Positions 2,666 through 58,845 of a DNA stretch of 64,000 nt are shown one piece after another. Position 1 is the stretch's first letter; every line of letters begins with the position of its first letter. Both the position numbers and the translations under genes were made by a program. This DNA comes from a virus. Taxonomy: Duplodnaviria; Caudoviricetes. Location: IMG/VR virus record IMGVR_UViG_2791355157_000004, positions 1 through 64,000 of that record; one strand, 5' to 3'. Under the pieces are notes generated by a model. It ran no database searches. It saw nothing but the letters and a program-made list of their open reading frames with translations, and was not told where the DNA came from.

Positions 2666-3688
2666 TTAGTTCAGGTATTGCGCCAGCTTTTCCAGACGGC
2701 CGTAAACGTGCTGGTTACCGATCAGCGCTGCTTTACGGGTGGCAGCCATGCGGTAAGCCACGACCTGCATTTCCACATCCAGGCGATCCAGGAACTGGGT
2801 AACGGTCTCTGCGTTCGCTTCATTGAGATGGTCCGCAACGTAGGTTGCGATCGCATAACGCACGGAGACTTCATCCGCAATGTTCACTGTAAGCGGTGAC
2901 TTCACGATTTCTTCGATGCGCGGCAGGCTCTGGTAGAGCTCAGCAAACGCGATGAATTCCTGCGCTGCGCCCTGCCCCACAACGCCTGCGAACAGTGGCA
3001 GGTCTTTGATGCTGATGTCCTGACCGGTTGACAGGCGGGACGCAAATGACCAGGTGCGCGGGCACGGGAACGTCTTGTCCTGGTGATCAGGGCTGAAGTT
3101 GTGCAGCAGGCTGGTTTTATAGTTCAGGAAGCCGATGATACGGGCATCGATGCCATTGCCGGCAGCCCATTCAGACCAGTCTTTCAGGCTGACAGCCAGC
3201 TCCAGGTGGATCAGACGTGACTGCGTTGCTGTTGACAGTGAATTCACGATCGCCTTATCAGAGGCTTTGTTACCGGCGCAGACGATGTGGACGCTCGGGT
3301 GCAGCTCATGCTGGCCAACCATCTTGTCGAGCACCAGCTTATACGCTGCGGCCTGTACGGCGCGGCTTGCAGACGGGAACTCATCCAGGAACAGCAGCCA
3401 GCCATTACAGCCTGCCGGCAGATCGTCACCTTTGACCGGGAAGGTTTCCATCGGCACGTAGCGGGCTTTGTCGCCCTGCACGTTCGGGAAGCCCATCAGG
3501 TCAGTCGGATCACACTGGCTCAGGCGCAGGTCGATGACTTTCAGTTTCAGCTCTTCAGCGATAGAGCGCATGATGTCGGACTTGCCGACACCCGGGCTAC
3601 CTTCAACGTAAGGAACCAGACCGGCACCTAACACGCGGATGATGGTTGAACGCAGGGATGAAGGGTTTAAGGCTAAATTCATGCTCAT
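2666..3688 (-). CDS. MoxR-type AAA+ ATPase, N4 gp24-like
   Basis: Walker A GSPGVGKS, Walker B LFLDE, AGN and CPRTW motifs. Confidence 0.88.
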   Translation of the reverse strand: MSMNLALNPSSLRSTIIRVLGAGLVPYVEGSPGVGKSDIMRSIAEELKLKVIDLRLSQCDPTDLMGFPNVQGDKARYVPMETFPVKGDDLPAGCNGWLLFLDEFPSASRAVQAAAYKLVLDKMVGQHELHPSVHIVCAGNKASDKAIVNSLSTATQSRLIHLELAVSLKDWSEWAAGNGIDARIIGFLNYKTSLLHNFSPDHQDKTFPCPRTWSFASRLSTGQDISIKDLPLFAGVVGQGAAQEFIAFAELYQSLPRIEEIVKSPLTVNIADEVSVRYAIATYVADHLNEANAETVTQFLDRLDVEMQVVAYRMAATRKAALIGNQHVYGRLEKLAQYLN

Positions 3689-18399: not shown

Positions 18400-18441
18400 C
18401 GCTAACAGACAGGGAAGGGCGTACAGAAAGCAGGATCGGGT

Positions 18442-18789: not shown

Positions 18790-18818
18790 AATTGATCTCC
18801 TGATTTGATGGGTGGTGG

Positions 18819-18837
18819 CCATCAGCGGCGAAGCCGC
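18819..18837 (-). promoter_or_regulatory. vRNAP hairpin promoter
   Basis: CC-ATCA-GCGGC-GAA-GCCGC. Confidence 0.9.
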
Positions 18838-18839
18838 TA

Positions 18840-18874
18840 CTTCACATCTATGAAGTGTTACTTATTAAGTATGA
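18840..18874. repeat. Heptad array H7 abutting the hairpin promoter
   Basis: cttcaca tctatga agtgtta cttatta agtatga. Confidence 0.7.
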
Positions 18875-20256: not shown

Positions 20257-20401
20257 AGATGCCTTTCAGATCAGAACGAATAAAGCGGAATGGCAAATGC
20301 CATCCCGCTTTTGATTGTTACCAATGCTGCCCGATAATGACTGTTATCTTTGCAGATCCCAGCATATATAAAAGCAGCTCACCGGTTTTCATTATACTGC
20401 C

Positions 20402-22288: not shown

Positions 22289-22468
22289 GGTAGCTGTCTC
22301 CTCGACTAATTCCCATACAATGATGGTTAAAGCGCACCAGACAGGCTTTAGGCTGTCTTTAGTGCAAAGGCATACCTTTGGGTGCAGATAGTCTTTAGGA
22401 GCGCACTGTGTGCTTCCTGCTGGTCTATCACCCTGCCTGAACAACGGGGCCGCCAGGCCCCGCAGTGT

Positions 22469-22786
22469 TTAGTCGAACAGTGCTGCGCATTCGACAAACA
22501 GTTCCTGCAACTCAGTTGAGTGTGCAAGTTCTTGTTTAATCGCATGCTTCTGCGTAGCGAGACGCAGTGCTGCTGAGTCTTTGGAGGTGACACGATGCAC
22601 GATGAGATCGTGTTTGGTATCCACCTCTGCTTTGGCATACATGGCTGATGCCTTGAGGTTTAGGGTGCCTAAGGCTTTGGAGATAGTCTCCACAGTACCT
22701 GTTACACCCTGAGCTAAGCTGCTCACTGTGTTCATTACGTCAACGACTGCGCCTGTTGATGATGCGGTTACGCCTTTGTTTAACAT
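22469..22786 (-). CDS. N4 gp1-like early protein
   Basis: 105 aa, first gene after the outermost hairpin promoter, AGGAG RBS; size, position and Ser/Thr/Ala-rich N-half resemble N4 gp1. Confidence 0.65.
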   Translation of the reverse strand: MLNKGVTASSTGAVVDVMNTVSSLAQGVTGTVETISKALGTLNLKASAMYAKAEVDTKHDLIVHRVTSKDSAALRLATQKHAIKQELAHSTELQELFVECAALFD

Positions 22787-22823
22787 GGTGATGCTCCTGA
22801 TCCTGATAGTGATGGCATGATTG

Positions 22824-22842
22824 CCACTACCGGCGAAGCTGG
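22824..22842 (-). promoter_or_regulatory. vRNAP hairpin promoter (Pe1 equivalent), one G-T mismatch
   Basis: CC-ACTA-CCGGC-GAA-GCTGG. Confidence 0.8.
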
Positions 22843-22953
22843 CCCACACACGAAGGAGGAGGCAAACCGGGGGGGAGTGTCCGGTGTTGTGTAATGTGTG
22901 GGGCCACACCCCTACTCTCAGACGTCACCATAAAAAAATGGCCAACCTTTCGG

Positions 22954-23130
22954 TCAGCCTTTTGGTATTGGCCGCCTGGCCAGTTCCTTTTGCAGCTCTG
23001 CTATCTGCCGCTCCAGGGAGACTATCCGTCCCTGATAGTGCGCGGTCAGGATCTCCATGTTCTCTTTGTTCTGCTGGGTCAGGCGTTGCCGTGTGCGATC
23101 GCAGTTATCGCAGTTCTTTGGTCTTCCCAT
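22954..23130 (-). CDS. Small coiled-coil protein (MGRPKNCDNCD...)
   Basis: Hand-translated 58 aa, followed by a terminator. Confidence 0.55.
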   Translation of the reverse strand: MGRPKNCDNCDRTRQRLTQQNKENMEILTAHYQGRIVSLERQIAELQKELARRPIPKG

Positions 23131-23131
23131 A

Positions 23132-23159
23132 TTTCATACTTAATATTTCACACGTATGA
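23132..23159. repeat. Heptad array H8
   Basis: tttcata cttaata tttcaca cgtatga. Confidence 0.65.
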
Positions 23160-23433
23160 GGTACCGGGGGTACACGGTCTCACCGTCGATGTCCTTAGTG
23201 GCCAGCATCTCAACCTCAAAGCGCTGGCTGCCCGGGTAGGCTTCAGTGATGAGGATGTGAAGACGCTGGATGAGTTTGTCCCTGAGCTTCGCAGCCTGAC
23301 GCCGTTTCTTCGTCGGGAACAGGACTTTCAGTCCGGTAAAGAACTGCGCGGAGATGAGGTGCTGATGAACCAGCAACTGATAGGCGAGCGCTTCCTGGCC
23401 CGTTGACCTGTGCGTCACTACGATGATGCTCAT
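23140..23433 (-). CDS. Hypothetical protein
   Basis: 97-aa ORF with AAGGA RBS, co-oriented with neighbours. Confidence 0.55.
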   Translation of the reverse strand: MSIIVVTHRSTGQEALAYQLLVHQHLISAQFFTGLKVLFPTKKRRQAAKLRDKLIQRLHILITEAYPGSQRFEVEMLATKDIDGETVYPRYLIRVKY

Positions 23434-23480
23434 GGATGGTGTCCTTGCAATGCCGGTACCAGGCGGTACCGGGGGGGTCG

Positions 23481-23969
23481 TCAGATGATTGCGTTAAGTT
23501 TGGCGGTAAGCTTCAGAATAATATCGTTGAGCTCTTTGGCCGTATTGCCGTTGGTAACGTTACGCAGGGAACCGCACAGCTGGCTGATCAGGTCAGCGAG
23601 GTGCTGGCGCTCCTGCGCGCGCGCATAGTCTTCGCTTAACGAAGAATTAACAACTACTTTTTCTGGGGAATTGACTTCTGCCTCCGACTGCGCGCACGTG
23701 CTGACGTGTGTCACCTGCCAGTCATCGGCGTGCATATCACCCTGGCTCGGCACCCAGGGGACGACGCTGCCCTGCGCGTTCTTCAGCGCGTAGTAGCTGC
23801 CGTACGGAACGAGGTTATCGGGGAAGTGGTCTTTGATCACCTCCATGCGTGCCGGGTAGTTGCCGGCGGGGACGAACCAGACAAACTGGCCCTTGCCGTT
23901 CCAGCCCTGGCGCTGGATAGCCTTGCCGTCTGCGGTACATGCACGCAGCGCTTCAGCGAAATTCATCAT
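23481..23969 (-). CDS. DUF2829 / Tad2-like protein with C-terminal extension
   Basis: MNFAEAL..GKAIQRQGWNGKGQFV...VPWVPSQGDMHADDW is the DUF2829 signature. Confidence 0.85.
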   Translation of the reverse strand: MMNFAEALRACTADGKAIQRQGWNGKGQFVWFVPAGNYPARMEVIKDHFPDNLVPYGSYYALKNAQGSVVPWVPSQGDMHADDWQVTHVSTCAQSEAEVNSPEKVVVNSSLSEDYARAQERQHLADLISQLCGSLRNVTNGNTAKELNDIILKLTAKLNAII

Positions 23970-24214
23970 GGAACCGATTCCTTTTTTGGTTTTTGGGGGG
24001 GCGTGCTGGCCTTGTATTTGCGTTTGCCCATCATCTGCAGGCGCAGATCCTGGATAACGGCGATGGCGCACATCACTGGGTAGTGGCGGTAAAGCGCCAG
24101 CAAAGAATGCTCCAGCTCGGCCATGTTGCGGTGCATCCGCTTACGCACGCACTCTTCACCCGCGCAGTGGCCGATGAAGTACGCGAGGCACATCAATAGA
24201 ATGGTGATGATCAT
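23966..24214 (-). CDS. Small membrane-anchored protein
   Basis: Hydrophobic N-terminus; coupled to the downstream gene. Confidence 0.55.
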   Translation of the reverse strand: MIITILLMCLAYFIGHCAGEECVRKRMHRNMAELEHSLLALYRHYPVMCAIAVIQDLRLQMMGKRKYKASTPPQKPKKESVP

Positions 24215-24266
24215 GTGGGTCCTTGGTTCATTTGAGGGCGCCGCAGCGCCCCAGCCGGGAAGGAGA

Positions 24267-24572
24267 TTAGCGGGATAACTGCATATTCATGAGCGATGGG
24301 TGGACTAACTGGCGGGTCATGTCGTAGCCCTTGCGGAAGAGGCAAGTGGTCAGCAGATCGAGACTCAGTTCAGACAGCTGGCCAGTCAACATGGCGCGGG
24401 CTTCATCGATGGTGATCTGGTGATCCTGGGCGAAGTGGGCGACCCCATTCTCTTCACCGCCGTAATCCATTGTTAACAGAATGAGAAAATCTGCTTTTAG
24501 TTTTAAAACCTTACGCTCGATATGGTTATCAGTCAGAACGTCAAAGGGGGAAGCGACTTTTAGCGACAGCAT
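24267..24572 (-). CDS. XRE/HTH_37-like transcriptional regulator (repressor candidate)
   Basis: SPFDVL...LKLKADFL...AHFAQDHQITIDEARAMLTGQLSELSLDLL...GYD resembles the HigA-like HTH_37 pattern; palindrome 24591-24604 just upstream. Confidence 0.6.
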   Translation of the reverse strand: MLSLKVASPFDVLTDNHIERKVLKLKADFLILLTMDYGGEENGVAHFAQDHQITIDEARAMLTGQLSELSLDLLTTCLFRKGYDMTRQLVHPSLMNMQLSR

Positions 24573-24590
24573 CTGGTGGACCTGCTCAGT

Positions 24591-24604
24591 TAGGAATTGT
24601 CCTA
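24591..24604. promoter_or_regulatory. Palindromic operator-like motif TAGGA-N4-TCCTA (one of about 11 copies)
   Basis: TAGGAATTGTCCTA; related copies at 568, 802, 4698, 8993, 14335, 25809, 28161, 36582, 37317 and 59210. Confidence 0.75.
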
Positions 24605-25013
24605 TTTAAGCACCGCTTTAGCAGCGCGGCAATGACCTGTTCCAATTCTTTTTTGACTAACTTTCTTTCACAGTCGAGCTCTGTGAGGTGGTCATTAAGA
24701 TGGTGAAACTTTGCCATCAGTTCTTGCTGAGATCGTGTCGTCATGCGGGGCCTTCTTTTATAAATATTCTATATATATCAAATACCTAATCCGTGGCGCC
24801 AGGCGGCTCCTTCCGTTCGCCAAATTGTGTGTATGATGTAACTATTCAGGTACACTAAGGTAAGGCGCCCTCAGGCGCCCTTCATTAAAAATTCTAATGC
24901 TAATGACCGTTTTTCACGGTTCGATATTCGGGTGGTCCGGCTGACAAAAAGAGTGCGATCGCCACTGTCAATCCGGAAGAAAAAGCGACCGTTTAACTGA
25001 CCCTGGCGGACCT

Positions 25014-25391
25014 TCAAATCTTGCAACCGTCGCAGTCATCGTCGTTCAGGTCAGCCAGCAGATCGCGGGTTTCGCGTTCCTGGTACAGCGTTTCTTTTAA
25101 CAAATAACCCTCAAGTGGCCAGATTTTTTCGAACGCGTTATCGAAGGCGCACTTCTGGCCAATCTCTTCGTTGTAGTTCGACGGATCGACACAGGCGCTG
25201 GTGCCTTCCACCTTGAAGCCGTTCTCCAGCTCGATGATGCAGACGGTCACCAGGCTCAGCTCACCCATGGTGCGCAGGTCAAGTGACGCGTCGGGCGCGA
25301 GTGCTGCAAGCACGGCGCGGCCGGCGTTGATGTAGTGGACGCTGCGGATTTTGCTCTGGATTAATTCAGGTGTGATTTTACGTTCGGTCAT
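25014..25391 (-). CDS. Phage gp49/gp66-family protein (possible nucleotide-signal sponge)
   Basis: TVCIIELENGFKVEGTSACVDPSNYNEEIG...AFEKIWPLEGYLL signature. Confidence 0.85.
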   Translation of the reverse strand: MTERKITPELIQSKIRSVHYINAGRAVLAALAPDASLDLRTMGELSLVTVCIIELENGFKVEGTSACVDPSNYNEEIGQKCAFDNAFEKIWPLEGYLLKETLYQERETRDLLADLNDDDCDGCKI

Positions 25392-25412
25392 AGTGATTCT
25401 CTCTGGTTCAGA

Positions 25413-25763
25413 AAGAGAAAAGCCCAGCCGAAGCTGGGCTATCCCATATTGTTACGCGGCGCTCCGACCCCTCGGGACCCGTGTATTTGATAGTGGTAGC
25501 TATCTGGGAAGGCACTGCATGTGGCGGTAAATCCGGGAAGAAACCCGCCGGCAATGCCCTCTCAGATAAATACGCCCCAATCCGGTAACAGAGAAGGGGC
25601 AGAACTCTGGTTTCCGCGCTTATCAGGCGCTTCCGCGTAACAGGCCACTGACCTGTGGTGACGAAAAATATCCGTAAGGAAATGGATTGCACAGCATCAT
25701 CAGCAAGGCGGCACCAGCGCTAATGCTAAAGGCGTCTCGGGGAAACGGCTTTCACCTTAGGGC
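25413..25763 (-). ncRNA. Putative structured ncRNA 2 (~350 nt), class unrecognised
   Basis: Bounded by a sigma70-like promoter and a terminator (agcccagc-ttcg-gctgggct-TTT); nested long stems; no convincing ORF. Confidence 0.6.
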
Positions 25764-25769
25764 CTGCTC

Positions 25770-25798
25770 AGAATGCCAATGCGCAAAAGATGCGTCAA
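25770..25798 (-). promoter_or_regulatory. Sigma70-type promoter for ncRNA 2
   Basis: TTGACG-17 bp-CATTCT with a TG extension. Confidence 0.65.
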
Positions 25799-25880
25799 TA
25801 ATTATTTTTCGGATTAATCTTATAGGATAGCATTTAGGTTTGTGCTTGTCGGACCGCAAGCACTCAAAAAGGAACCTGAG

Positions 25881-26561
25881 ATGCTCACACTTGATTTACT
25901 GCAGAATTCCCTGCCCCAGCAGCTCAAGACACGCGTGACTCAGGATATGGTGGACAGCTTCAACGCTTCCATCACTGATCCGCTCGTTGCCGAGAACATG
26001 CGGGACAACCTGCTCTCTTACACCCGCGTCCTGGCCGACGGGCGGTTTAAGATGGCGGACTACATGGATGCGGTGCGCTACGTCAGCTTTAAGCTGATGG
26101 GCTACCCCAACCAGGACGCGTACGCCCGTACCTTCCCTAACCGCTGGCAGGCGCTGCATGCCCAGGGTGCTTCACCCAAGGACATCTCTGCCTACGTCAG
26201 CGCCTACAACAAGAACAAGCTGGTGAACCTGATTCTGGAGCAGACGCTGATCCCGACTCACGTGCTGAACCAGGATATCTACCAGAAGGCCATTAACGTC
26301 CAGGCCGACATGATGATGAACGCCAAGAGCGAGAAGGTTCGCGTTGAGGCGGCGAACTCCCTGCTCAATCACCTGAAGCGCCCTGATACGCACAAGGTTG
26401 AACTGGAGATCGGCATCAAGGACAGCTCCGGCCTGCGTGAGCTCAAGGATTCCATGGCTCAGCTGGCACAGCAGCAGCGGGACATGATCCAGGGTGGTCA
26501 CATCTCTGCCCGCAGCGTTGCCCATTCACCCCTGGTGATCGAGGCAGGTGACGATGAGTAA
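25881..26561 (+). CDS. Terminase small subunit (N4 gp69-like)
   Basis: Immediately upstream of terL; YARTFP, YNKNKLV and SEKVR..AA motifs of the N4 family. Confidence 0.75.
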   Translation: MLTLDLLQNSLPQQLKTRVTQDMVDSFNASITDPLVAENMRDNLLSYTRVLADGRFKMADYMDAVRYVSFKLMGYPNQDAYARTFPNRWQALHAQGASPKDISAYVSAYNKNKLVNLILEQTLIPTHVLNQDIYQKAINVQADMMMNAKSEKVRVEAANSLLNHLKRPDTHKVELEIGIKDSSGLRELKDSMAQLAQQQRDMIQGGHISARSVAHSPLVIEAGDDE

Positions 26562-48348: not shown

Positions 48349-48423
48349 TAGTTCGCTGATCTGACATAACTTATTATGGGGGAGCGTACACACTCCCCCT
48401 TCTTTATGTCTGAGGATCGGCAC

Positions 48424-51400
48424 ATGGCCTATGAGCTAAATTACGGACAGCCCCTGGCCGGGCAGTCCGTTGGCGACGTGAAAAAGCAGCAGGTGGCAGA
48501 AGCCTCCGCAGCTAAGCAGCAGGAGCTCGACCCTGCCGCCGCCTACAACAAGGACCTGGCGAGCCTTGACCCCGTCCTGCTCCAGCAGAAGTACGGCGAT
48601 AAAGCGGTCGTTGACCAGCTGGACTACAAGCTGGGCGCGGCACAGAGCCAGCGCATGGACAACTGGGATCGCAGCGCAGGTGAAGTCACCAGCGATACCG
48701 GTTTATCGGTTGCCAAAGGCGCAGTTGGCCTGGGCGGTTTCCTGTCGAGCTTCGCCCGTATGGCGGGCCAGGGCATGGCCGTCACTGGTCAGAACTGGAA
48801 CGACCCTGAACAGGCACTGAAGAACCTGCACGCCGTTGAAGTGGGCAATGCCCGCTCCGCTGCGGCGCAGAACCAGAGCATCAATAATGCCAATGACGCG
48901 CTGACGCAGGCCCTGAGCCGTCGCAGCCAGCTGGCAGAGACCCGCACCAACGCGGATATTCAGGATCGCCAGCAGCAGAACACCGCGCAGTATGACGCCG
49001 ACCTTAAAGCCGGTGCGTCCCCGCTGGTGGCCGGACTGGAGCAGCTGGGCCGTGGCTTTGTTGACGGTGCCAGCGCAGTCGCCAAAGACCCGACCTACCT
49101 CAGCAACTTCGTCGCCCAGCAGGTCCCTTCCCTCGCCCTCGGTCCGGCCAGCGCCGTAGCCGCCCGTGCTGAAGTCGCAGCAGGCCTCACTGGCTCAGCA
49201 GCCCGTGACCTTCTGAAGTCTGAACTCGGTAAAGCCGCGGTCCAGAAAGCCGGTACCCGTAACCTGATGGCAAGCATCGGGATCACCGAAGGCGCTGGCG
49301 CCGGTCAGCAGACGTTTGACCAGGTGAACCAGACCAGCTTTGATGATCTGCAGAAGCACTCGCAGGACTACCGTGACCTCATCGCCCAGGGCAATTCCCC
49401 TGAGGATGCCCGCGCTGTCGTGGCCCAGCGTTCCGCCAATGCGGCAACGCTTATCCAGACGCCTGCCGCTGCCCTTGCCGGCAAGATTGCCGCGAAGTTT
49501 GAGCTGGCACCGCTGTCAGGTGGTGGCGCTACCGGTGCTGCCCGCGTCGGTCATGCCCTGATGAGTACGCTCAAAGAGACCGGTGAAGAGACCCTTCAGT
49601 CCGGTGGCGGTCAGCTGGCGCAGAACGTCGGCGTGAAGAGCTACGCGGACGACACGCAGTCCCTGTCGGACGGTGTCGGTGAGCAGGCCGGTATGGGTGC
49701 GCTCGGTGCCGTCGGTTTAACCACCGCAGTCCAGGCGCCAAGCGCCGCTGCCGGCGTGGCAAAAGTCACTGCGCGCCAGACCGCTGACATGGCGAAACAG
49801 GCGGCCGGTTTCTCAATGACCAAACTGCGCGATATCGCCGAGAAGCGTACCGCGCTGAACCCTGAAGACCAGGCCGCTGCCGATGCACAGACACAGTCTG
49901 AGTCCATCAACACGGCCGCTCAGGAGTACGCCCAGGCGCAGCCGCAGGCGGCTACGGATGAGCAGGCCACTGAAGAAGCCCCTGCCGCACCCGAAGATAC
50001 CCGCATTGGAAAGCTGGCTCAGCTGAACCAGTTCCTGTCACACCCGCAGGCACCGGAAGCGCAGAAGCGTGACCTGGTGGCCAAAGCCGTGGTGCAGATG
50101 GGCAACATGGTCAATGAGTACAAAGCCATGGGTGCAGAGGTAGAAGCCGATCCTGACGCTGACCACACGGTAACCCTGGGCAAGATGCAGGCGATGGAAA
50201 AAGCCTTCGCCTCTCCGGAATTCCAGAACATCATTGCCCACCAGCAGCACTACGCGCAGAACCCGATCGACGTCGCTGCTGCGGATGAAGCGATCCCCGA
50301 ACAGGTCGGTACCGCAACGCCTGAGATGCAGCAGCACGCCAAAGACGTGGCGGATCAGGCGGCTATTGAGCCGGAAAAAATCCCTGAGCCGCTGTATCAG
50401 AAGGTGATCAGCAACGGTAAAGCGCTGGGCCTGAACCCGCAGCAGATTGCGCAGGTACAGGGTGGCCTGAAGGTCGCGCAGCTGTCGCAGACCAAAGGCA
50501 TCGACATGGTCAATAAGGACGTGACAGAAGGCGGCAACGCCCAGTTCATGAGCCTCAAGGACCACGTGAAGGGCGTCTATGCCGGCCTCGCTGCCAATGA
50601 CATGCAGAGCGCGCAGAATGCCATGACCGGCCTTCAGGCGTTTGCGCAGCACATGGCCAGCAAAGCGGCTGACTTTGACGCTGCCTACGATCGCTGGCAG
50701 GCCAACCCGGCAGCCGGTCCGGTCAGCGTGACCCGTGCCGACGGTTCCACCTACAACTCGCTGGTAACCGCGGGCCAGCAGGCGAAACCGATGTTTGCCT
50801 CCGGCAAGTCATCCGTGCTGATGGCGAAGATCCGCAATGAAGCGAAGCTCCTGGCGGACACCTACAACCAGATGCTGTCGGACCATCCGGAGCTGTCTGG
50901 CTCACCGATTTCACTGGCCCCTGCCCCGCAACAGCAGCAGGCACAGCCAGTGGCGGCACCTAAACCCGCTGCACCGGTGCGTGAATCCACAACCGGTACC
51001 GGCGTCTTTAACGGTGAGCGTGAGCTGACCCGCGCTGAGATGCAGGACCTCGCCTCCGGTGAAGTGACGATCGCCGACCTCAAACAGAAGTGGGCTGACG
51101 AAGCCGCACCGGCGCCGGCGGTACAGGAGCCTGTGGCGGAAGCAGCCCCTGAACCTGCCCGGGCAGCTGAGCCGGTACCGCAGGAATCAGTACCAGCACA
51201 ACCAGAGCCAACTCCGGTGGAATCTCCAGCAGAAACCAGGGACAATGTTACTGAGCCGTTAAGTAAAGCAGACCCAGTAACTGCTAACCCAGAACCTGTG
51301 ACTCCACAAACTGATGAAGCCGGGGAGCCGCAGAATGAACCGTCTGAACCATCTGAGCCTGTGGCTGATCGTGAGCCTGCAGGTGAACCTGTGGTGGCTG

Positions 51401-54400
51401 AAGAGGACACTCAGACGGGCGCTGAGCGACTTCTTGCTAATCTGACACCACGCCTTAGCCGCGAGCGTACAGAAAAGGAGAGCGAGGCCGATCACGAAGC
51501 CCGCGTCTCCAACGCCGTGGTGAAATGGTTTGCGCCGGCTAAAGCCCGTACCCCCTTCTCCCGCACCCTGGATTTCATGTCGAAACTCGGCGAGGCGCTG
51601 CGCACATCGGCGGATGCCACCGGTGAACTGCTGGGCCTGAAAGACGGTGAGCAGCTGACCCAGGAAAACATGGATGCACTGGAGACGCTGACCTACCTCA
51701 ATGACCGGTTCCGCGATGAATACGCGCAGGCCATTGCTGCCAAGCTGGCCAAGGTCAAAGACCTCAATGCCCTGCCGTGGCGCAACAGCCCTATCCTGTA
51801 TTTCACCCGCGTCAGCCAGAAAGGTGAGCTGCGTTCGCACCAGACGTCACGTCACGCCACCGATGCGATCGGCATGGCGGCGCTGAAGTTTGCCCTGGAT
51901 AACCTGAACGCCACCGGGCCAACGTCACGCGAAGACCTGGCGGAAGACCTGAACATCAGCGCTGACCAGATCACCGACGCCATGATGGAGCGGTTCATGA
52001 CCGGCTCGCAGGCATTCAGCGTGGTGGCCGGCCGTCTCGCCGCCTCGATTACCCGCACCATGGGCCTGAAAGCCAGTGATGACGCCCCCGGCAACATCGC
52101 CAACGGGATTCCGCTGTCGCTGGCCATGGATGCGCTGAACGTGCTGCAGAAGCTGGGCCTGGCGAAGATCGACTCCCTGAAAATGGATGTGGGTACCGCT
52201 GATGCACCGGAGATTAAAACCTTCAAATCGGTGAGTTTCGTCAACGATGAAGGCAGTGCGCTGCGCGACATCGATGCTGCGCTGGGCAGCCAGCTGGACC
52301 TGCTGTCCCGCATGATTGACCCGGAGAGCAAAGCCTCTGCGTACATCGATGCGCTGCCGCCTGTCGGTGGCGATCGGCTGGGCCGCTCACAGGTACAGAA
52401 GCTGTCTTCCCGCCTGAAGGATACTGTACGCAACCTGCAGAAAAAGGCGTTCTACCTGAACACCGACCTGCATGATCTGGTTGAGGGCATGGGCTTTGAC
52501 GCCGTGGGTAAAATGCTGGGTATCCGGGAAACGGATAACCTCAACCGGATGCACGCGGAAAGCGTCGAGGGCAAGAACGTCTCCATTCGTTCAGCCCTGG
52601 CAAGCTGGCAGCGCGGCATGTCTGACCTGCAGGCGAAAGCCGGCGATCGCAACCTGGGTGACATCCCGGTGCGCTTCGCCTGGTCCATCGGCAGCAACAT
52701 GCGCGCCATGCTGAACTCCACCACCTTCAACCCGCAGCGGCATAAATTCCACCGCGAGCTGATGACCGGTGAACCCCGTGCGATCACCCTGGGTGATAAA
52801 AAGCAGGTTCACCAGTTCCAGATGGCGGTAGCCCAGGCAATGGGCGTGAAGGTTGACCGCATGAGTAACGCAGCGGCCAAGGCTAAAGCAGCCGAGAAGC
52901 TGGCTGATCCGACCGTTGCCGCTGCCGTGGATACGCTGAAAGCGCACCTCGGTGACTACTCCGGCCTGACGGCCAGCGACGTAGGGGTGATCACTGCGGC
53001 GGTCGGCATTGCCGGCGAGGGCATGAAATCCTTCCATGGTCTGCTGGCTCAGGCGAAGTTCCTGCATGCGCAGGAGAATGGCGCCACCAGCTTCATGAAC
53101 CATCTCACCTTTGAGCTCGACGGTAAAACGGATGGTCCGGCAAATGCCCTGGTGCATTTCGGATCGGCGCGGGGTGACAGCACCTTCTTCAGCATGCTGA
53201 AGAAAGTCGGCCTGTTCGTGAACGATGCCTCCACCGCGCTGAACGTGTTCTCCGCCGGTGACTCCGACATCTACCAGGAAGTGTCAGCGCGCATCAACAA
53301 CGTGCTGAAAGCGGCGAATCCGGACAACATGGAACCGGGTGCGGTGCGTGCCATGAAGGGGCAGCTTCGTCTGCTGCAGCTGGCGGGTAACATTGAGATT
53401 GCCGATCCGGATGATATCAAGACGGCAACCGCCACCCGTAACATGGCCAAGAACCCGGTGACGCAGACCGTCTATTCTGCCGGTGACGACGCCAAGGTCC
53501 GCAGCCTCAGTAAGCAGATGCAGACGGCCGTGTATGAGGAACTCAGTAAGGCGCTGGCTCAGGGTACCCAACTTGACCAGAGCATCGTGGATGCCGTGGA
53601 GTCCCTGACCGGGAATACTGCGCTGCGCGATCCGGCGAACTATCAGGGTTTCCGGTTCTCGCCCAACGACAACACGCTGATGGAAAACCACCTGACCACC
53701 GGCATGGGTGCGGTGCTGAATACGGCGATCGGCGACGTGCTGGGTAACGTGGTGACCTCCGGCCAGACGCTGGCCAAGGCCGCTGCCGTTCAGCACCAGT
53801 TCTTCGCCGCCGCGTTCACCAAAGCCCGCCAGGCGAAACTCGACGCGCTGCGTGCTGCAGGCGAACTGTCGGGATTTGAAGATCTGTCCGCGGCTCAGGT
53901 GCAGGAAGTCTATGATTCCGTGGTTCACCTCGCACCGATTTACCACAACGCCCTGACCAGCGGCACGAACCCGCGTGACGGGATGCTGATGAGTAAAGAG
54001 GTCCGCGGCAAATTCACTGAGCAGCGCGCCGAGTCAGTCTTCGGTGACAAAACCGATATCCCGGCGCTGGACTTTGAGGCGCCAGGCGCACGCCCTGCTC
54101 CGATGATGACCATCTCCTCAGGCGATGCCACCATGATGGCGCTCTACTTCCTGAAGCACGACAACGCCCTGAACGTCTTTGACGGACTGGAGGTTATGCC
54201 AGGGGAGTTCGATGCCGCCGCGAAGGCGATCAACGAAGCGGTGTTCCAGGGCTGGCAGTTTGGCCTGATGAGCAGCATTGCCGAGTCGTATGAAGCCGGT
54301 ATCCGCGCTGTCACGCCTGACCTGTTCAGCGGCCTGTCTGTGGCAGAGCTGGGCAACATGGCGCGTAACCTGCGCATTCCCGCGAAGCAGCTGAAGGGTC

Positions 54401-57400
54401 TCGATGCCGGTCAGCTGATGACGCGCATCATGCAGGAGGCGGAGGGAACCAACATCGATCTGAGTGACCTTGCCACCAACATCGATGCGACGAAGAGCGT
54501 CATCTTCAACGAACTGCCGACCTCGACCGACCACATGGCCGGCCACGAGCAGCCGGTGATTAACCGTGCTGATATCGCCCCGGTCACTGACCCGGTGACG
54601 CAGGTGGCCAGCCGCGCTAACGCCTACCGCATGCGGAAACGTAAAGCGGAAGATCTGCAGCTGTCGCAGAATGACACGGCACTCGACCGGCACCTCAAAG
54701 CGGTGAACCCGGGCAAGGGTGACCCTGTCACGGTGTTCACCAAAGACCAGGTCCTGCAGGCGCTGAAAGGCTACCTCGATGAGGTTGCCGGTAAGAAGGC
54801 GCGTATCCCGCAGTTCGTGCTGAGCCAGATTGAGAAGCAGCTGCCTGATGACCTGAGCGTCCATATCGGCACGCCGCAGAACATCCGCAGTCACATCCTG
54901 GCGCAGTTCCCGGATCTGGGCAGCGGTACGCTGGACCTGGTGCAGGGTATGACGTACGGCAACACGGTGTTCATCGGCAACCGCTCCGCAGAAACCATCC
55001 TGCATGAGCTGGTTCACGCCGCGACACAGAACGTGATTGACCAGTATTTCAGTGACGCCACCCGGCTGTCGCCAGAGCAGCGCAGCAGTATCGGAGCACT
55101 CAACCGCATCCTGACCGACTTTCTCTCAGAGGAAGCCGCCGGCCTGCCGGTTGAACAGCGCCGCTTTGGCAAGTCGGGCAACGTGCAGCAGTACCTGCAG
55201 ATGCTGGTCACTACCGGCGATCGCACCACTGCGCTGAAAGAGTTTGTGGCCTGGTCGATGACTAACCCCTGGTTAGCCGCTGACCTGCAGGCCGTGGAGA
55301 ACACGGATAAATCCACCCACATCCTGGGCCGCATCCTGAAGGTGATCGCCCGCATGCTGGGTATCGGTACCGCAGCGCAGAGCTATTTCACCTCGATCGC
55401 CGGCCACGTGCAGCAGGCCATGGGCCCTGCCTACACGCGGGACGTCACCGGCACAGCGACGGCGCTGAATCAGCTCGACCTTGATGGCCTGTTCGCCCGC
55501 CTGCGCTCCGAGCGTACGACGGTCAGTCATCAGGCGCATCTGGATCAGGTGTTCGCTAACCTCAAACAGAACCTGATTGACCGCATCACGACCACGGCGC
55601 AGCCGGTAGCCGGTATCAAAACCGCTGCTGACCAGCTGGACCTGGACGCCATCGACCCGGCTATCAGCCAGTCCGCTGCGCAGTTTATGGCGAGCGGCTA
55701 CCCGATGAACGCCCAGGAAGAAATGGTGTTCAAGATGCTGCAGGCGTCACTATCCACGGCGTTTGAGGCGCACCCTGCCCGTGCCATCGAAGCGCGTAAG
55801 CTCTTCAATGAAGCGGCGCAGCGCCTGACACCGGCAGACTTTGGCCTGGGACCGATGGGCCAGATGCGCTACGACGCGCTGTTTGGTCAGGGTCAGCATG
55901 CAGATACCCAGCTGGCCAACTTCCTGGCCGTGGCCCAGGTCAACCAGCAGCTGCGTGACGCACTGCGTCAGATGTTCGTGAAGCGCAGCAGCCAGCGATC
56001 GCAGAACTGGGAAGAGCGCATCACCAAATCGGTGGATGACGCCATCCGCTGGGTGGCCAACCTCGGTACCGGTATTCGCCGCTCTACCGAAGTGCAGAAG
56101 CGCCTCGATATTCTGACGAAGAACCTGACGCACTTTGAGGCGCAGGCGAAGCAGAACGTCATTGAGAAAGCGACCAGCGGTATCGGTGATTCACTGGATC
56201 AGCTGAACAACGTGGTGAACCAGAAGAAGGCCAATGGTGCTGCCTGGCTGGAAGCCAACGCCGAGCAGCTGGCACAGAAGGTGCCGAACGCAGTCGCACA
56301 GAACTATGCCGAGTTTCTGATGCGCGGTGTGGCCGCGATGGGCAGCAAAGGGGCGAGCAGCCGGTTTGCCGAAGCGCTGACTTCCACCATTAACCAGGGC
56401 GATGCGGATACCCCGCTCGGGCCGCTGCGCTCACTGGTGGTGGAGATGATGGGCGTGACTGACTCCAACCGGGCAACGCTTGAGCTGGTCTCCCGCGCCA
56501 AGACCTCGGTGGACAAGGTGCGTCAGATCATCCGCGAGCAGGTACCGAAAATCCTCAGCGAGCGGTTCAGCGCCCCGCTGTCACAGCAGGAGTCCGCTGC
56601 CCTGCACGCCGGCCTGGGTAAGACCGATGCTGCGTCACTGCTGAAAGCAGGCTACAGCCATACCGATGTGCAGCGCCTGTTCGCTGACCAGGCGTATCTG
56701 GTGAATGAAATCAGCAATGCGTCCGCTGCGATCGTCGGCCCTCACGCTGCTTCGCAGCGCCTGGCCTCCGACGCGCTGGCGCACTTTATGGTGACGGGTG
56801 AGGTGACCAACAGCCACCTGCTGACCAATGCCTACCAGATTGCTAACCTGACCGGTACCGGTATTGCGGTGCAGTCTGCTGATGCGAAAGCCAATCAGTC
56901 GGCGCTTGATAAACTGGTGTCGCTGCTGGCGATCAGCAAACTGCCGGCACAGCAGAAGAGTGACGTCGCCGCAGTCATGGCGCGTGAGGAGAAAGCGAAC
57001 CCGGGCGACAATGGCGCCACGTTCTCGCTGAACTACCTCAACAACCTGCGTGAGCGCGAGGATGCTCGCCTCAATGCGATGAACGGCATCAAGGGTGCGA
57101 TGCACACCACGTTTGACGCCCATAAGTCGGTGGTCATTGCCACGGCGGCCCAGGGTGCTGAGCTGCTCAAGCGCGGTTATATCAAGGGTGCCATGGTTCA
57201 GGGTGATCCGCAGGCTAACCACGGCGTCATGCATTACTACGAGTCCTCTGAGGGCGGTCGCCCGCAGTGGAATCAGGGTGCGATGCAGACGGTGCAGGTC
57301 ACGGCCGGCGGCGTTGACCCGTATACCGGTCGCATGATCACCCCGGTTTCCACCCCGCGACTGCAGGGGGGTACCCAGGTGAGTGCGCTGGCAGCGAAGC

Positions 57401-58845
57401 GTCGCCAGCAGGCACGAACCGGCCGGGCTTTCATGCCGAACGGTAACAACATGAATCTGCGCCCTGTCTTCGACATCAACGGCGCCACGGTGGCGTATGA
57501 ATACTCGGTGCCGCATGACGTCCGGGACGCGAAGCTTGAGGCGAACACGGACTTTGGTCACAACCTGGGTGTGTGGGAAGGCCGTATTCAGGAGGAGCTG
57601 CTGAGCCAGGGCTTCAACCAGAAGCTGGTGGAAGTGCTGCACGATCGCTACACCGAGGATATGAAGACCACGGGCCGCGATAACGAGTACATCGCCATCA
57701 ACGCGAAGTCCAAAGACCCGCAGGTGCGTGAGATGTATGGCCTGATGCCGGTTGAGATGAAGGCGATGGTGGAGAATGTGTTCGGGGGTGATCTGATGGT
57801 GCGTAAGGATATGCTGGATAACGCCCTGGGCTTTCGCCGTGCGTCGGTCAAGGAGATCTGGGACGGCAACAGCCGTCTGAATGCGGGGGCACAGAGTGCT
57901 GTGAAAGCGGTCTCTGAGGTGGTGATGGGTAAATCCGCTGCGCGATACCTGCGCAAAGGGGAGCGCTTCCTGCAGGAGGCCGTATCCAGTGCAAAAGACT
58001 GGATCGTCGTACGTTCCCTGGTGGTGGCACGTGACAACATCGTCTCAAACGTGACCCAGATGCTGAGCCACGGTATGAACCCTCTGCAGGTAGCGCGTAA
58101 AAGTGCCGAAGCAATGGTGCTGGTGGATGCGTATCAGAAGAACGAGCGCCGCATGAACGAGCTGTCGCTGCTGATCCAGAACGGCGTGACGCCGGCGAAG
58201 CATCCGGCATTCAACCGCGAGCTGGAATCGCTGCGTGCGGAGAACGCCCGTAACCCGGTGCATCCCCTGGTGATGGCCGGCCATCTGCCGACGATCGCCG
58301 AAGGGCTGTCTGAGAACGACGACTACAGCATGCGCAATGACTTTAACGGCTGGGTTGAACGCCAGACCGCGAAGTTACCGAAGGGTGTGACCACGGCTGC
58401 GCGCTATGCGCTGATTGCCCGCGGTACCCCGCTGTATGCCGGTCTCAACCGGATGATTCAGTATGGTGATTTCACTGCGAAGTACGCCCTGTATGACCAT
58501 CTCATGACCCGGAAATCGGACAAGATGGACCAGCAGGGGGCACTGCAAATGCTGGAGGATGAGTTCGTGAACTACGCGCTGCTGCCTTCCCGCTCCCGTG
58601 ATTACCTGGAGAGCATGGGTGCAACGTGGTTCCTGAACTACAAACTGCGCATTCAGAAAATCCTGCTGCGCTCGATGCGTGACAATCCGCTGCGCTTCCT
58701 GGCGATCGCCGGTGGCTTTAATGCGGCTGACGTGCCGAACGTGCTGGATGCAAACCTGGTGACGAATTCGGTGAGTCCGAACCTGGGGATGGGGGCGCTG
58801 TTCAGAGCGCATGAAACGCACCCGCTCTGGTGGCTTATCGACTGA
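48424..58845 (+). CDS. Virion-encapsidated RNA polymerase (N4 gp50-like)
   Basis: About 3470 aa, no Cys seen; motifs A (ELDGKTDG), B (RNMAKNPVTQTVY) and C (NVFDG); C-terminal QYGDF..KY. Confidence 0.95.
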   Translation: MAYELNYGQPLAGQSVGDVKKQQVAEASAAKQQELDPAAAYNKDLASLDPVLLQQKYGDKAVVDQLDYKLGAAQSQRMDNWDRSAGEVTSDTGLSVAKGAVGLGGFLSSFARMAGQGMAVTGQNWNDPEQALKNLHAVEVGNARSAAAQNQSINNANDALTQALSRRSQLAETRTNADIQDRQQQNTAQYDADLKAGASPLVAGLEQLGRGFVDGASAVAKDPTYLSNFVAQQVPSLALGPASAVAARAEVAAGLTGSAARDLLKSELGKAAVQKAGTRNLMASIGITEGAGAGQQTFDQVNQTSFDDLQKHSQDYRDLIAQGNSPEDARAVVAQRSANAATLIQTPAAALAGKIAAKFELAPLSGGGATGAARVGHALMSTLKETGEETLQSGGGQLAQNVGVKSYADDTQSLSDGVGEQAGMGALGAVGLTTAVQAPSAAAGVAKVTARQTADMAKQAAGFSMTKLRDIAEKRTALNPEDQAAADAQTQSESINTAAQEYAQAQPQAATDEQATEEAPAAPEDTRIGKLAQLNQFLSHPQAPEAQKRDLVAKAVVQMGNMVNEYKAMGAEVEADPDADHTVTLGKMQAMEKAFASPEFQNIIAHQQHYAQNPIDVAAADEAIPEQVGTATPEMQQHAKDVADQAAIEPEKIPEPLYQKVISNGKALGLNPQQIAQVQGGLKVAQLSQTKGIDMVNKDVTEGGNAQFMSLKDHVKGVYAGLAANDMQSAQNAMTGLQAFAQHMASKAADFDAAYDRWQANPAAGPVSVTRADGSTYNSLVTAGQQAKPMFASGKSSVLMAKIRNEAKLLADTYNQMLSDHPELSGSPISLAPAPQQQQAQPVAAPKPAAPVRESTTGTGVFNGERELTRAEMQDLASGEVTIADLKQKWADEAAPAPAVQEPVAEAAPEPARAAEPVPQESVPAQPEPTPVESPAETRDNVTEPLSKADPVTANPEPVTPQTDEAGEPQNEPSEPSEPVADREPAGEPVVAEEDTQTGAERLLANLTPRLSRERTEKESEADHEARVSNAVVKWFAPAKARTPFSRTLDFMSKLGEALRTSADATGELLGLKDGEQLTQENMDALETLTYLNDRFRDEYAQAIAAKLAKVKDLNALPWRNSPILYFTRVSQKGELRSHQTSRHATDAIGMAALKFALDNLNATGPTSREDLAEDLNISADQITDAMMERFMTGSQAFSVVAGRLAASITRTMGLKASDDAPGNIANGIPLSLAMDALNVLQKLGLAKIDSLKMDVGTADAPEIKTFKSVSFVNDEGSALRDIDAALGSQLDLLSRMIDPESKASAYIDALPPVGGDRLGRSQVQKLSSRLKDTVRNLQKKAFYLNTDLHDLVEGMGFDAVGKMLGIRETDNLNRMHAESVEGKNVSIRSALASWQRGMSDLQAKAGDRNLGDIPVRFAWSIGSNMRAMLNSTTFNPQRHKFHRELMTGEPRAITLGDKKQVHQFQMAVAQAMGVKVDRMSNAAAKAKAAEKLADPTVAAAVDTLKAHLGDYSGLTASDVGVITAAVGIAGEGMKSFHGLLAQAKFLHAQENGATSFMNHLTFELDGKTDGPANALVHFGSARGDSTFFSMLKKVGLFVNDASTALNVFSAGDSDIYQEVSARINNVLKAANPDNMEPGAVRAMKGQLRLLQLAGNIEIADPDDIKTATATRNMAKNPVTQTVYSAGDDAKVRSLSKQMQTAVYEELSKALAQGTQLDQSIVDAVESLTGNTALRDPANYQGFRFSPNDNTLMENHLTTGMGAVLNTAIGDVLGNVVTSGQTLAKAAAVQHQFFAAAFTKARQAKLDALRAAGELSGFEDLSAAQVQEVYDSVVHLAPIYHNALTSGTNPRDGMLMSKEVRGKFTEQRAESVFGDKTDIPALDFEAPGARPAPMMTISSGDATMMALYFLKHDNALNVFDGLEVMPGEFDAAAKAINEAVFQGWQFGLMSSIAESYEAGIRAVTPDLFSGLSVAELGNMARNLRIPAKQLKGLDAGQLMTRIMQEAEGTNIDLSDLATNIDATKSVIFNELPTSTDHMAGHEQPVINRADIAPVTDPVTQVASRANAYRMRKRKAEDLQLSQNDTALDRHLKAVNPGKGDPVTVFTKDQVLQALKGYLDEVAGKKARIPQFVLSQIEKQLPDDLSVHIGTPQNIRSHILAQFPDLGSGTLDLVQGMTYGNTVFIGNRSAETILHELVHAATQNVIDQYFSDATRLSPEQRSSIGALNRILTDFLSEEAAGLPVEQRRFGKSGNVQQYLQMLVTTGDRTTALKEFVAWSMTNPWLAADLQAVENTDKSTHILGRILKVIARMLGIGTAAQSYFTSIAGHVQQAMGPAYTRDVTGTATALNQLDLDGLFARLRSERTTVSHQAHLDQVFANLKQNLIDRITTTAQPVAGIKTAADQLDLDAIDPAISQSAAQFMASGYPMNAQEEMVFKMLQASLSTAFEAHPARAIEARKLFNEAAQRLTPADFGLGPMGQMRYDALFGQGQHADTQLANFLAVAQVNQQLRDALRQMFVKRSSQRSQNWEERITKSVDDAIRWVANLGTGIRRSTEVQKRLDILTKNLTHFEAQAKQNVIEKATSGIGDSLDQLNNVVNQKKANGAAWLEANAEQLAQKVPNAVAQNYAEFLMRGVAAMGSKGASSRFAEALTSTINQGDADTPLGPLRSLVVEMMGVTDSNRATLELVSRAKTSVDKVRQIIREQVPKILSERFSAPLSQQESAALHAGLGKTDAASLLKAGYSHTDVQRLFADQAYLVNEISNASAAIVGPHAASQRLASDALAHFMVTGEVTNSHLLTNAYQIANLTGTGIAVQSADAKANQSALDKLVSLLAISKLPAQQKSDVAAVMAREEKANPGDNGATFSLNYLNNLREREDARLNAMNGIKGAMHTTFDAHKSVVIATAAQGAELLKRGYIKGAMVQGDPQANHGVMHYYESSEGGRPQWNQGAMQTVQVTAGGVDPYTGRMITPVSTPRLQGGTQVSALAAKRRQQARTGRAFMPNGNNMNLRPVFDINGATVAYEYSVPHDVRDAKLEANTDFGHNLGVWEGRIQEELLSQGFNQKLVEVLHDRYTEDMKTTGRDNEYIAINAKSKDPQVREMYGLMPVEMKAMVENVFGGDLMVRKDMLDNALGFRRASVKEIWDGNSRLNAGAQSAVKAVSEVVMGKSAARYLRKGERFLQEAVSSAKDWIVVRSLVVARDNIVSNVTQMLSHGMNPLQVARKSAEAMVLVDAYQKNERRMNELSLLIQNGVTPAKHPAFNRELESLRAENARNPVHPLVMAGHLPTIAEGLSENDDYSMRNDFNGWVERQTAKLPKGVTTAARYALIARGTPLYAGLNRMIQYGDFTAKYALYDHLMTRKSDKMDQQGALQMLEDEFVNYALLPSRSRDYLESMGATWFLNYKLRIQKILLRSMRDNPLRFLAIAGGFNAADVPNVLDANLVTNSVSPNLGMGALFRAHETHPLWWLID

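Follow-up and report, generated by a model that had tools for sequence, protein, structure and literature searches.

What is encoded by the non-coding interval that separates the small terminase subunit gene (terS) of an N4-like phage from the oppositely oriented genes next to it? We addressed this question for a stretch of 64,000 nucleotides (the window), which comprises bases 1–64000 of the 73,312-bp virus record IMGVR_UViG_2791355157_000004; the record has terminal repeats and is estimated to be complete. An initial annotation of the window, made from the letters alone, had proposed that about 350 nt of the minus strand, divergent from terS, form a structured RNA with a sigma70-type promoter and an intrinsic terminator. 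The promoter TTGACG-17-CATTCT, the UUCG terminator, the inverted repeats, a palindrome, and a 94-amino-acid open reading frame (ORF) that it listed were all recovered at the same coordinates, and comparison with related phages supports a non-coding, structured minus-strand unit of this kind. Thus, the locus is very probably a functional RNA element of the minus strand. Our best explanation of the locus as a whole, to which we give a probability of about 0.5, is that it encodes a structured non-coding RNA, about 350 nt in length, with a leaky terminator and a core that would bind a protein, so that the RNA would serve as scaffold or decoy.

Among named records, that of Pantoea phage G19 is the closest (98.6% identical across 651 nt), and it was the sole blastn match among 50,697 phage records; a blastn search of plasmids returned no match, and an exact-pattern scan of bacterial and archaeal genomes returned 0. 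Using terS as a handle, we obtained the IMG/VR contig L003 (terS 85% identical) and, from a terS-based metagenome scan, three further loci, L007 (85%), L008 (84%), and L009 (83%). L003 and L009 span the whole region, and L007 and L008 cover part of it. These sequences represent three diverged lineages, window/G19, L003/L007, and L009/L008. Pattern scans of IMG/VR retrieved only the L003 contig and Erwinia phage vB_EamP-S6 (S6). None of the 24 sequencing runs listed with the stretch, all of them assembled contigs, is recorded as RNA. Of four that were compared, two that we guessed to be RNA gave scattered low-depth pieces, none of them over 25451–25781, and have no bearing on expression; the two DNA contigs contributed no further relatives.

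Folded as a single sequence, the minus strand reaches −138.8 kcal/mol (z = −3.33), which is moderately unusual, with 1 of 100 shuffled sequences folding as well. It is because of the relatives, rather than the promoter or the single fold alone, that we consider the structure to be beyond chance. RNAalifold predicted 96 consensus pairs from the four full-length sequences, and 14 of these pairs are changed on both sides. In an explicit count, 95.8% of the cells pair, and the 14 compensatory pairs compare with 0–3 in six slid controls; none of 500 shuffles reached the observed covariation values. Support was found for the two 5′ hairpins, a long-range closing helix, the stem H1, the stem H3 (in a wider set of sequences that includes S6 and Erwinia phage Fifi011), a long hairpin of about 30 bp, and the terminator.

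Support differs from helix to helix. Helix 1, the first of the 5′ hairpins, has two pairs changed on both sides, and helix 2 has one-sided changes only. The long-range closing helix has three compensatory pairs and is 87.5% paired. In H1, 97.9% of the cells pair across seven sequences, S6 and Fifi011 included, with two compensatory pairs. H2 pairs in 100% of the cells and has one compensatory pair (GAGC/GCUC in S6 and Fifi011); its loop, CUGAUAA in the window, G19, S6, and Fifi011, varies to CUUAUAA (L003), CUUAUAC, and UUCACAG (L009). H3 pairs in 97.3% of the cells, with three compensatory pairs in the wider alignment. The long hairpin (helices 10–12) contains an inverted repeat (25496–25518/25551–25573, 23 nt at 78%) and has four pairs changed on both sides, one of which takes the forms G-C, U-A, and A-U. 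When S6 and Fifi011 are added, H1, H2, H3, and the long hairpin each retain compensatory pairs in the resulting alignment, which is fitted to a covariance model; one predicted helix in that alignment is unsupported, with 60.7% of the cells pairing. Of two nested stems described in the initial annotation, the inner, 17-bp hairpin is real and turns out to be part of the longer covarying hairpin. The enclosing stem (25450–25459/25633–25642) pairs at 10 of 10 positions in the window but is not conserved: 82.5% of its cells are paired, compensatory changes are lacking, and 177 of 500 shuffles match it.

Identity between lineages is 82–88% in the H1–H3 core and 55–64% in the 5′ part of the RNA, compared with 79–83% for terS DNA and 68–73% for the first gene downstream, suggesting from sequence comparison that the core is under selection. 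A possible pseudoknot would join CAGAG to CUCUG in the H3 loop; both arms are invariant and give no covariation signal. We rejected an alternative in which the H3 loop pairs with the long hairpin's 5′ arm, as it breaks in L003 and L009.

Base pairing and folding energy favor the minus strand as the one that would act as RNA. The consensus helices contain 56 G-U cells and 3 A-C cells, a count that is biased in that the structure was predicted on the minus strand. Folded independently, the plus strand gives a consensus of −86.2 kcal/mol with 86 pairs, compared with −106.5 kcal/mol and 96 pairs for the minus strand, and the single-sequence z scores are −2.22 and −3.33, respectively.

Judged by a single sequence, the promoter of the RNA is no better than chance: its −35 hexamer matches the consensus at five of six positions and its −10 hexamer at three of six (manual count), and a consensus scan yields about one call per 1.4 kb in shuffled sequence. 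The relatives again add to this. The spacer is exactly 17 nt in window/G19, L003/L007, and L009/L008, its sequence is unrelated between lineages, and the −10 hexamer retains its A2 and T6; a spacer of 16–18 nt together with these two bases is what defines a sigma70-type promoter. Hexamers and spacing that are kept while the spacer is free to diverge are expected of a working promoter of this type, for which TTGACG-17-CATTCT is a candidate. The A/T-rich tract upstream of the −35 hexamer may be akin to an UP element. S6 has a comparable pair, TTGTTA-16-CATACT, followed by the 5′ end AGCCUAAGUG where the window has GCCCUAAGGUG (manual reading). We rejected a sigma54 promoter at the locus, since the GG/GC spacing is unsuitable.

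Between the promoter and terS lies a palindrome, a one-mismatch member of a GGAWWWWTCC set, which in the relatives is an exact palindrome (GGAATAATCC in L003 and GGATAAATCC in L009). The window holds seven exact copies of GGAWWWWTCC, compared with 0.41 expected and with none of 100 shuffles reaching this number; they start at 804, 4700, 28163, 36584, 37319, 55305, and 59212 and are 10 nt each. Several copies are longer, with about TATAGGAWWWWTCCTAAAAG as their extent, and occupy short gaps ahead of genes on either strand; among these are sites preceding the portal gene, following terL, and preceding the gene starting at 4664. GGAWWWWTCC may serve a dimeric regulator as its site, or another polymerase as a promoter element.

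At its 3′ end, the RNA is bounded by the hairpin AGCCCAGC-TTCG-GCTGGGCT (25440–25421; eight pairs, six of them G-C, and a loop of four) followed by TTTCTCTTTC, that is, by a G+C-rich stem-loop directly before a U-rich tract, as in an intrinsic terminator. The window has AGCCCAGC/GCUGGGCU as the stem, L003 has AGCCCCAC/GUGGGGCU, and L009 has AACCC-GC/GC-GGGUU, which amounts to three compensatory pairs, and the UUCG loop and the U tract are invariant. In the window, GUAUUUAUCU after H3 could give a minor early stop.

The RNA extends beyond the three lineages. We ran a covariance model of the RNA core (R1) on seven phages outside the clade and obtained matches in two Erwinia phages of the genus Waedenswilvirus, S6 (41 bits, about 1e-8) and Fifi011 (41.5 bits); both matches adjoin terS on the opposite strand. 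These phages share with the window a homologous core (H1, H2, CCAGAGUU, and H3), a similar 5′ end, and the position beside terS. Within the core, CCAGAGUU and the H2 loop are identical in sequence, and the stems change in a compensatory manner (GAGC/GCUC in H2 and GCCAGC/GCUGGC in H3). The S6 and Fifi011 element is about 190 nt long (manual reading), ends at H3 and a U tract, and lacks the long hairpin, unlike the longer form in the window; a short form of the RNA of about 190 nt thus seems to exist. Erwinia phage Pastis, likewise a Waedenswilvirus, gave a weak R1 match (22 bits, 1e-4) to the long-hairpin part. R1 had no match in the whole N4 and LUZ7 records or in the loci of Rhizobium phage RHph_X3_15 and Salmonella phage FSL SP-058. 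A second model (R2), built from the 3′ module, gave nothing significant outside the clade among seven other loci. Its match in N4 (21.2 bits; E about 2e-4 in 8.4 kb, a rough value), at 32704–32843 of the record, is a lead rather than a finding; there, a long hairpin followed by ACUAUCA lies between tRNA-Thr and tRNA-Pro, and R1 scores 13 bits.

Against 4227 Rfam models, the whole window gave no match at the gathering threshold. At E values of up to 10, matches over 25350–25900 were driven by the terminator, the best reaching 21.4 bits compared with a gathering threshold of 114. ARAGORN found no tRNA or tmRNA gene in the window, and the Rfam tRNA model had no match at E up to 10. The RNA represents a structured family of its own, new and unclassified, in N4-like phages of Erwinia and Pantoea.

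The coordinates of these elements and of the neighboring genes are collected in Table 1.

Table 1 Positions of the predicted RNA, its parts and its neighbors (window coordinates unless another record or locus is named)
Feature	Position	Strand	Remark
Predicted RNA, about 350 nt	25411..25763	−	5′ end inferred from the −10 hexamer, 3′ end from the U tract
−35 hexamer TTGACG	25793..25798	−	invariant in 6/6 aligned sequences
−10 hexamer CATTCT	25770..25775	−	17 nt past the −35 hexamer; CAATCT in L003 and L007
A/T-rich tract	25799..25810	−	directly upstream of the −35 hexamer; A/T-rich also in L003, L007, L008, and L009
Palindrome GGATTAATCT	25811..25820	.	one-mismatch GGAWWWWTCC member; between the RNA promoter and terS
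Two 5′ hairpins (consensus helices 1 and 2)	25698..25752	−	least conserved part of the RNA
H1	25640..25656	−	7-bp stem, loop AGU
H2	25616..25630	−	GCGC stem, 7-nt loop CUGAUAA
Invariant CCAGAGUU, then H3	25574..25610	−	GCCCC...GGGGC, inner 4-bp helix
Long hairpin	25496..25573	−	about 30 pairs; includes the 17-bp stem described earlier
Intrinsic terminator	25411..25440	−	8-bp stem, UUCG loop, U-rich tail; terminator scan
94-amino-acid ORF	25408..25692	−	open in the window and G19 only
Small terminase subunit gene terS (N4 gp69-like)	25881..26561	+	divergent from the RNA
First downstream gene, 125 amino acids	25014..25391	−	PF13876 (N4 Gp49 / Sf6 gene 66 family), 1.7e-28
Tad2-like gene	23481..24071	−	PF11195 (Thoeris anti-defence 2-like), 2.4e-21; four ORFs past the PF13876 gene
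Second conserved stretch of Waedenswilvirus	Pastis L014 1053-1590; S6 record 71008-71384; Fifi011 record 72970-73314
Suspect annotation spots	S6 L004 2868-3503, 3497-3679, 3876-4034; Fifi011 L015 3871-4101

On the plus strand, terS, terL, the structural genes, and a virion polymerase gene follow each other in an order that mirrors N4. The terS ORF matched 471 phage records by tblastn, some of them named "terminase small subunit" or "N4 gp69-like protein", and the central 1100 residues of a 3489-amino-acid ORF at 48376..58845 on the plus strand match the PHROG family "virion RNA polymerase" (phrog_2206, 7e-164). No integrase or resolvase family match was found in the complete 73.3-kb genome. 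Given the terminase order, the virion RNA polymerase, and the absence of an integrase or resolvase match, the genome is that of an N4-like phage (Schitoviridae), which we take to be a virulent phage of Pantoea.

In the window, the right-end block consists of the minus-strand genes between 25391 and about 18.9 kb. In N4, gp69 (terS) is likewise followed by the divergent gp70-72, which reach the right genome end; LUZ7 has 29 small genes in the place of gp70-72, and S6 has a similar block. At the far side of the block, GC-GAA-GC hairpins occur on the plus strand, the template for the minus-strand genes, at 18824–18838, 18387–18399, and 14288–14300. The hairpins at 18.8 and 18.4 kb lie in a common, longer motif, TAGCGGC(G)GCTTCGCCGCT(R)ATGG in minus-strand reading, and have a G about 11 nt past the loop centre. 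This placement of the G and the hairpin form fit virion-polymerase promoters in the terms in which the promoter passages of earlier studies describe them (PMC9163698, PMC4496689, PMC3715699). The hairpins are likely early promoters of the virion RNA polymerase, which likely places the left genome end near 18.9 kb. With early hairpins at 18.8, 18.4, and 14.3 kb, the early region would therefore begin near 18.8 kb, away from the RNA locus. GGCGAAGCC occurs four times, compared with 0.74 expected.

The position of the RNA points to a slot for stable RNAs. The gene directly after it encodes a PF13876 protein in three of three full-length lineages (window, L003, and L009), and a Tad2-like gene follows further on; the right-end block is probably an accessory or counter-defense region. 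N4 has the same two genes in the same order, gp48 (PF13876, 8.8e-35) and gp49 (Tad2-like, 8e-24). Ahead of gp48, the N4 record has a 1.5-kb gap after gp47 (32113–33631, our locus L020) without an annotated feature, in which ARAGORN found four tRNA genes (Asn, Ser, Thr, and Pro); in the remaining 1 kb or so are tRNA-like fragments and long hairpins, and a terminator closes the gap about 25 nt ahead of gp48. Salmonella phage FSL SP-058 carries 10 tRNA genes on the strand opposite to terS, beginning 215 nt away from it. The tRNA clusters of both phages occupy the same slot and orientation as the window RNA. The N4 tRNA cluster, the LUZ7 small RNA (sRNA) locus, and the window RNA are thus linked by synteny, each lying in a non-coding stretch ahead of the PF13876/Tad2-like pair or its replacements. 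Genes for stable RNAs, with a terminator at the end and accessory genes immediately behind, are the shared pattern, which makes a stable-RNA gene with a leaky terminator our preferred reading. A further N4 candidate, the gp70-gp71 gap, was discarded: its end resembles the stretch from the terminator to the start codon in the window, but gp71 is unrelated to the 125-amino-acid protein and has no Pfam match.

These data are consistent with the following sequence of events. Host sigma70 RNA polymerase would start about 7 nt past CATTCT, near 25763, and most transcripts would stop at the UUCG terminator near 25413, yielding a discrete, compactly folded RNA. Its predicted fold comprises the two 5′ hairpins, a multi-branch domain with H1, H2, H3, the hairpin of about 30 bp, and a small hairpin, and the terminator. 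A minority of transcripts would read through into the right-end accessory block with its PF13876 and Tad2-like genes; we infer this read-through because no promoter was found between the terminator and the PF13876 start codon, 29 nt past the terminator stem. In what is the least secure step, the nearly invariant core (H1–H3 and CCAGAGUU) would be bound, as a folded object, by a phage or host protein; its role would be that of a scaffold or decoy, not of an antisense regulator. An antisense 10-mer scan of the phage genome gave 85 matches, compared with about 49 expected, and no convincing start-codon site, a weak negative; a whole-RNA duplex search of the phage genome returned unrealistic structures, and this antisense search was crude and confined to the phage genome.

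Several points weigh against this explanation. Transcription itself, both ends of the RNA, its abundance, the read-through, and the partner are deduced from sequence. The consensus promoter scan did not list TTGACG-17-CATTCT, whose weak −10 hexamer (3/6) puts it below the cut-off, and the palindrome, standing before genes on both strands, could mark promoters of a different polymerase, and transcription would then start elsewhere. The covariation counts come from three diverged full-length lineages and the Waedenswilvirus phages, and shuffle controls overstate significance for related sequences. The idea of a bound protein leans mainly on the absence of a good antisense target, which is a weak argument. 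Moreover, in the full-length cases the RNA always stands directly before co-oriented genes with no room for a second promoter, an arrangement that a leader fits equally well.

Such a leader, acting purely in cis, is a serious rival to a stable RNA, and we hold it possible, if rather doubtful. The 350 nt or so would then be the 5′ untranslated region of the accessory operon, the terminator would be an attenuator whose read-through fixes or conditionally controls the output of the PF13876, Tad2-like, and adjacent genes, and the terminated RNA would be a by-product. The short distance between the terminator and the next start codon fits this, as does the promoter scan, in which the minus strand across 18300–25900 showed two weak promoter-like sites (9/12, at 24476 and 21314), neither of them between the terminator and the PF13876 gene. 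The constant PF13876 neighbor, the position of the related element in S6, Fifi011, and Pastis ahead of a co-oriented 202-amino-acid ORF, and the terminator directly before gp48 in N4 also fit. On the other hand, no leader peptide is conserved, with no frame open across lineages and an Rfam Thr_leader score of 17.1 bits compared with a threshold of 55. No conserved pairing that would compete with the terminator was seen (one candidate failed by covariation, and the search was not systematic), and a compact multi-branch fold with an invariant core exceeds what a terminator of fixed ratio needs. We read the RNA as a stable-RNA gene rather than a mere leader because the slot holds tRNA genes, that is, stable RNAs, in N4 and FSL SP-058.

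The other explanations fare worse. An element acting as DNA (for example, a signal for packaging, an origin of replication, or cruciform sites near the terminase genes) would suit a place immediately beside terS, the many inverted repeats, and H1, whose stem and 3-nt loop are shaped like an N4-type hairpin promoter. A cruciform should be symmetric, however, and here G-U pairs are tolerated and A-C pairs are not, the minus strand folds better by about 20 kcal/mol, and the region is bracketed by a spacing-conserved promoter and a covarying terminator. In the promoter sections of two earlier studies, the N4-type hairpin promoter of the virion polymerase needs a central purine in the 3-nt loop of the template strand (PMC4496689, PMC3715699). 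We rejected H1 (considered against a 5–7-bp stem with a conserved base and a 3-nt loop) as such a promoter, as its template loop for minus-strand transcription is ACT with a central C, and the window's own candidate hairpins differ from it in having GAA loops and a longer common motif. If N4 is a guide, the ends of the genome should fall near 18.9 kb, some 6.5 kb from the RNA. We also rejected the idea that 25.4–25.8 kb is a collapsed genome end with virion-polymerase promoters, since terS adjoins the co-oriented right-end genes in N4, LUZ7, and S6; the candidate early hairpins argue against it as well. Altogether, a DNA-level element is very unlikely. Still less credence is due to an RNA of a carrier or lysogen-like state that serves immunity or replication control, which the initial annotation had derived from the host-type promoter. 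That promoter and an RNA gene unlinked to the structural operon would agree with such a role; the virion RNA polymerase and the lack of an integrase or resolvase match do not. In their accounts of N4-like transcription, published studies describe host sigma70 RNA polymerase as part of the lytic program (PMC4496689, PMC3715699, PMC9163698), and the promoter is uninformative about a carrier state because the host polymerase serves lytic growth in these phages. No evidence for immunity or replication control was found, and the 10-mer scan of the phage genome revealed no antisense relation to a replication or early gene. The decoy role that the initial annotation also named is conceivable. The least credible alternative, which we consider extremely improbable, is a small protein-coding gene, either the 94-amino-acid ORF or a shorter one. 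Partly similar peptides can be read in S6 because the DNA is conserved, and the ORF is open in both the window and G19. In L003, however, the homologous frame lacks the GTG start, stops after ...GQWPVL, and is then frameshifted, and in L009 it stops after ...YRIGA. The initial annotation had named conservation of this ORF as protein as the outcome that would overturn the RNA, and the lineage-specific stops and shifts speak against it. The indels in the region are not multiples of three, the substitutions are compensatory in stems and lack three-base periodicity, and no reading frame open across all lineages was found.

We compared the RNA with several known systems. In type III toxin-antitoxin loci, a promoter, antitoxin RNA repeats, a terminator, and a protein gene follow each other. 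The order of the window locus (promoter, RNA, terminator, and a protein gene without its own promoter) is alike, but tandem repeats are absent from the RNA region and the downstream protein belongs to PF13876 rather than being of the ToxN type. A sponge of the CsrB/RsmB type, which carries many GGA motifs, chiefly in the loops of hairpins, was considered on the basis of these motifs, of which each RNA has 7–8, compared with 4.8–5.7 in mononucleotide shuffles, about 20% of which reach that number; S6 has one. We rejected a CsrA sponge, as GGA is not enriched and no Rfam model reaches its threshold. Put-type antitermination RNAs, which act in cis on the transcribing polymerase through two defined stem-loops, are far smaller. 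The window RNA resembles Put of phage HK022, compared by description only, in that it is structured, comes immediately after a promoter for host polymerase, and precedes an operon located behind a terminator; it shows no sign of processive antitermination. HK022 Put is named as a promoter-proximal antitermination RNA in the relevant passage of PMC4496689.

Among N4-like phages, the LUZ7 study was the only report of sRNAs that surfaced in a full-text literature search. Its section on non-coding transcripts describes putative sRNA1-3 as intergenic, non-coding RNAs of the late, host-polymerase stage, shorter than 250 nt, with a common start and alternative terminators, and leaves their function open (PMC9163698). 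By that description, they lie between orf69 and orf70, with the SSB and gp46-like genes upstream of them and the virion polymerase close behind, which is the N4 tRNA position by synteny. The window RNA precedes homologs of the gp48/gp49 pair. The LUZ7 sRNAs differ from it in genome place and are smaller. LUZ7 orf70-72 have no PF13876 or Tad2-like match, and with filters off the orf69-orf70 gap gave 10.8 bits with R1 and a match to a terminator hairpin alone with R2, which is no homology. The window RNA is hence a second RNA of N4-like phages, unrelated to the LUZ7 sRNAs and with comparative structural support, in a large and well-studied group of whose non-coding RNAs almost nothing is known.

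If the RNA acts in trans, it becomes a candidate host-manipulating or counter-defense RNA. The H2 loop is of a form like an anticodon loop (Y-U-NNN-A-R in most lineages), and CUGAUAA is identical letter by letter to the anticodon loop of the FSL SP-058 tRNA-Ile. The H2 stem has four pairs, its loop varies between lineages, and the RNA is not a tRNA. Phage tRNAs can counter tRNA-targeting defenses. It is an unlikely but conceivable extension that the RNA serves as a decoy for counter-defense or host takeover in the tRNA slot of an anti-defense island, beside the Tad2-like gene, where a core with an anticodon-loop-like loop could titrate or mislead a host nuclease or sensor of tRNA-like substrates. 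One RNA would then do the job of the tRNA arrays of related phages.

Some features of the related records also deserve mention. In Waedenswilvirus, a second conserved non-coding stretch, about 500 nt long and about 77% identical between phages, follows the 202-amino-acid gene. It opens with a UUCG terminator and contains many hairpins, an Rfam search with it gave no match, and part of it in Pastis gave the weak R1 match to the long-hairpin region. In the window, bases 58910–58931 on the plus strand are a near-copy (21 of 22) of the conserved single-stranded stretch past the long hairpin (AGCTACCACTATCA.AAATACA), located just past the terminator of the virion polymerase gene in a convergent gap; chance, a scar left by recombination, or a site common to both could each account for it. 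The S6 record places "gp100" on the minus strand; the plus strand has the 202-amino-acid ORF (2874..3482) with a ribosome-binding site, and Pastis annotates the plus-equivalent strand for its homolog. S6 gp101 and gp102 and Fifi011 gp111 overlie conserved non-coding structured DNA. S6 gp100-gp102 and Fifi011 gp111 look like annotation errors, and the deposited S6 and Fifi011 annotations put protein ORFs over the RNA regions. The G19 record, with 31 annotated features in 72.8 kb, annotates neither the small terminase gene nor the RNA region. As an isolated phage that is nearly identical here, G19 makes the RNA directly open to experiment.

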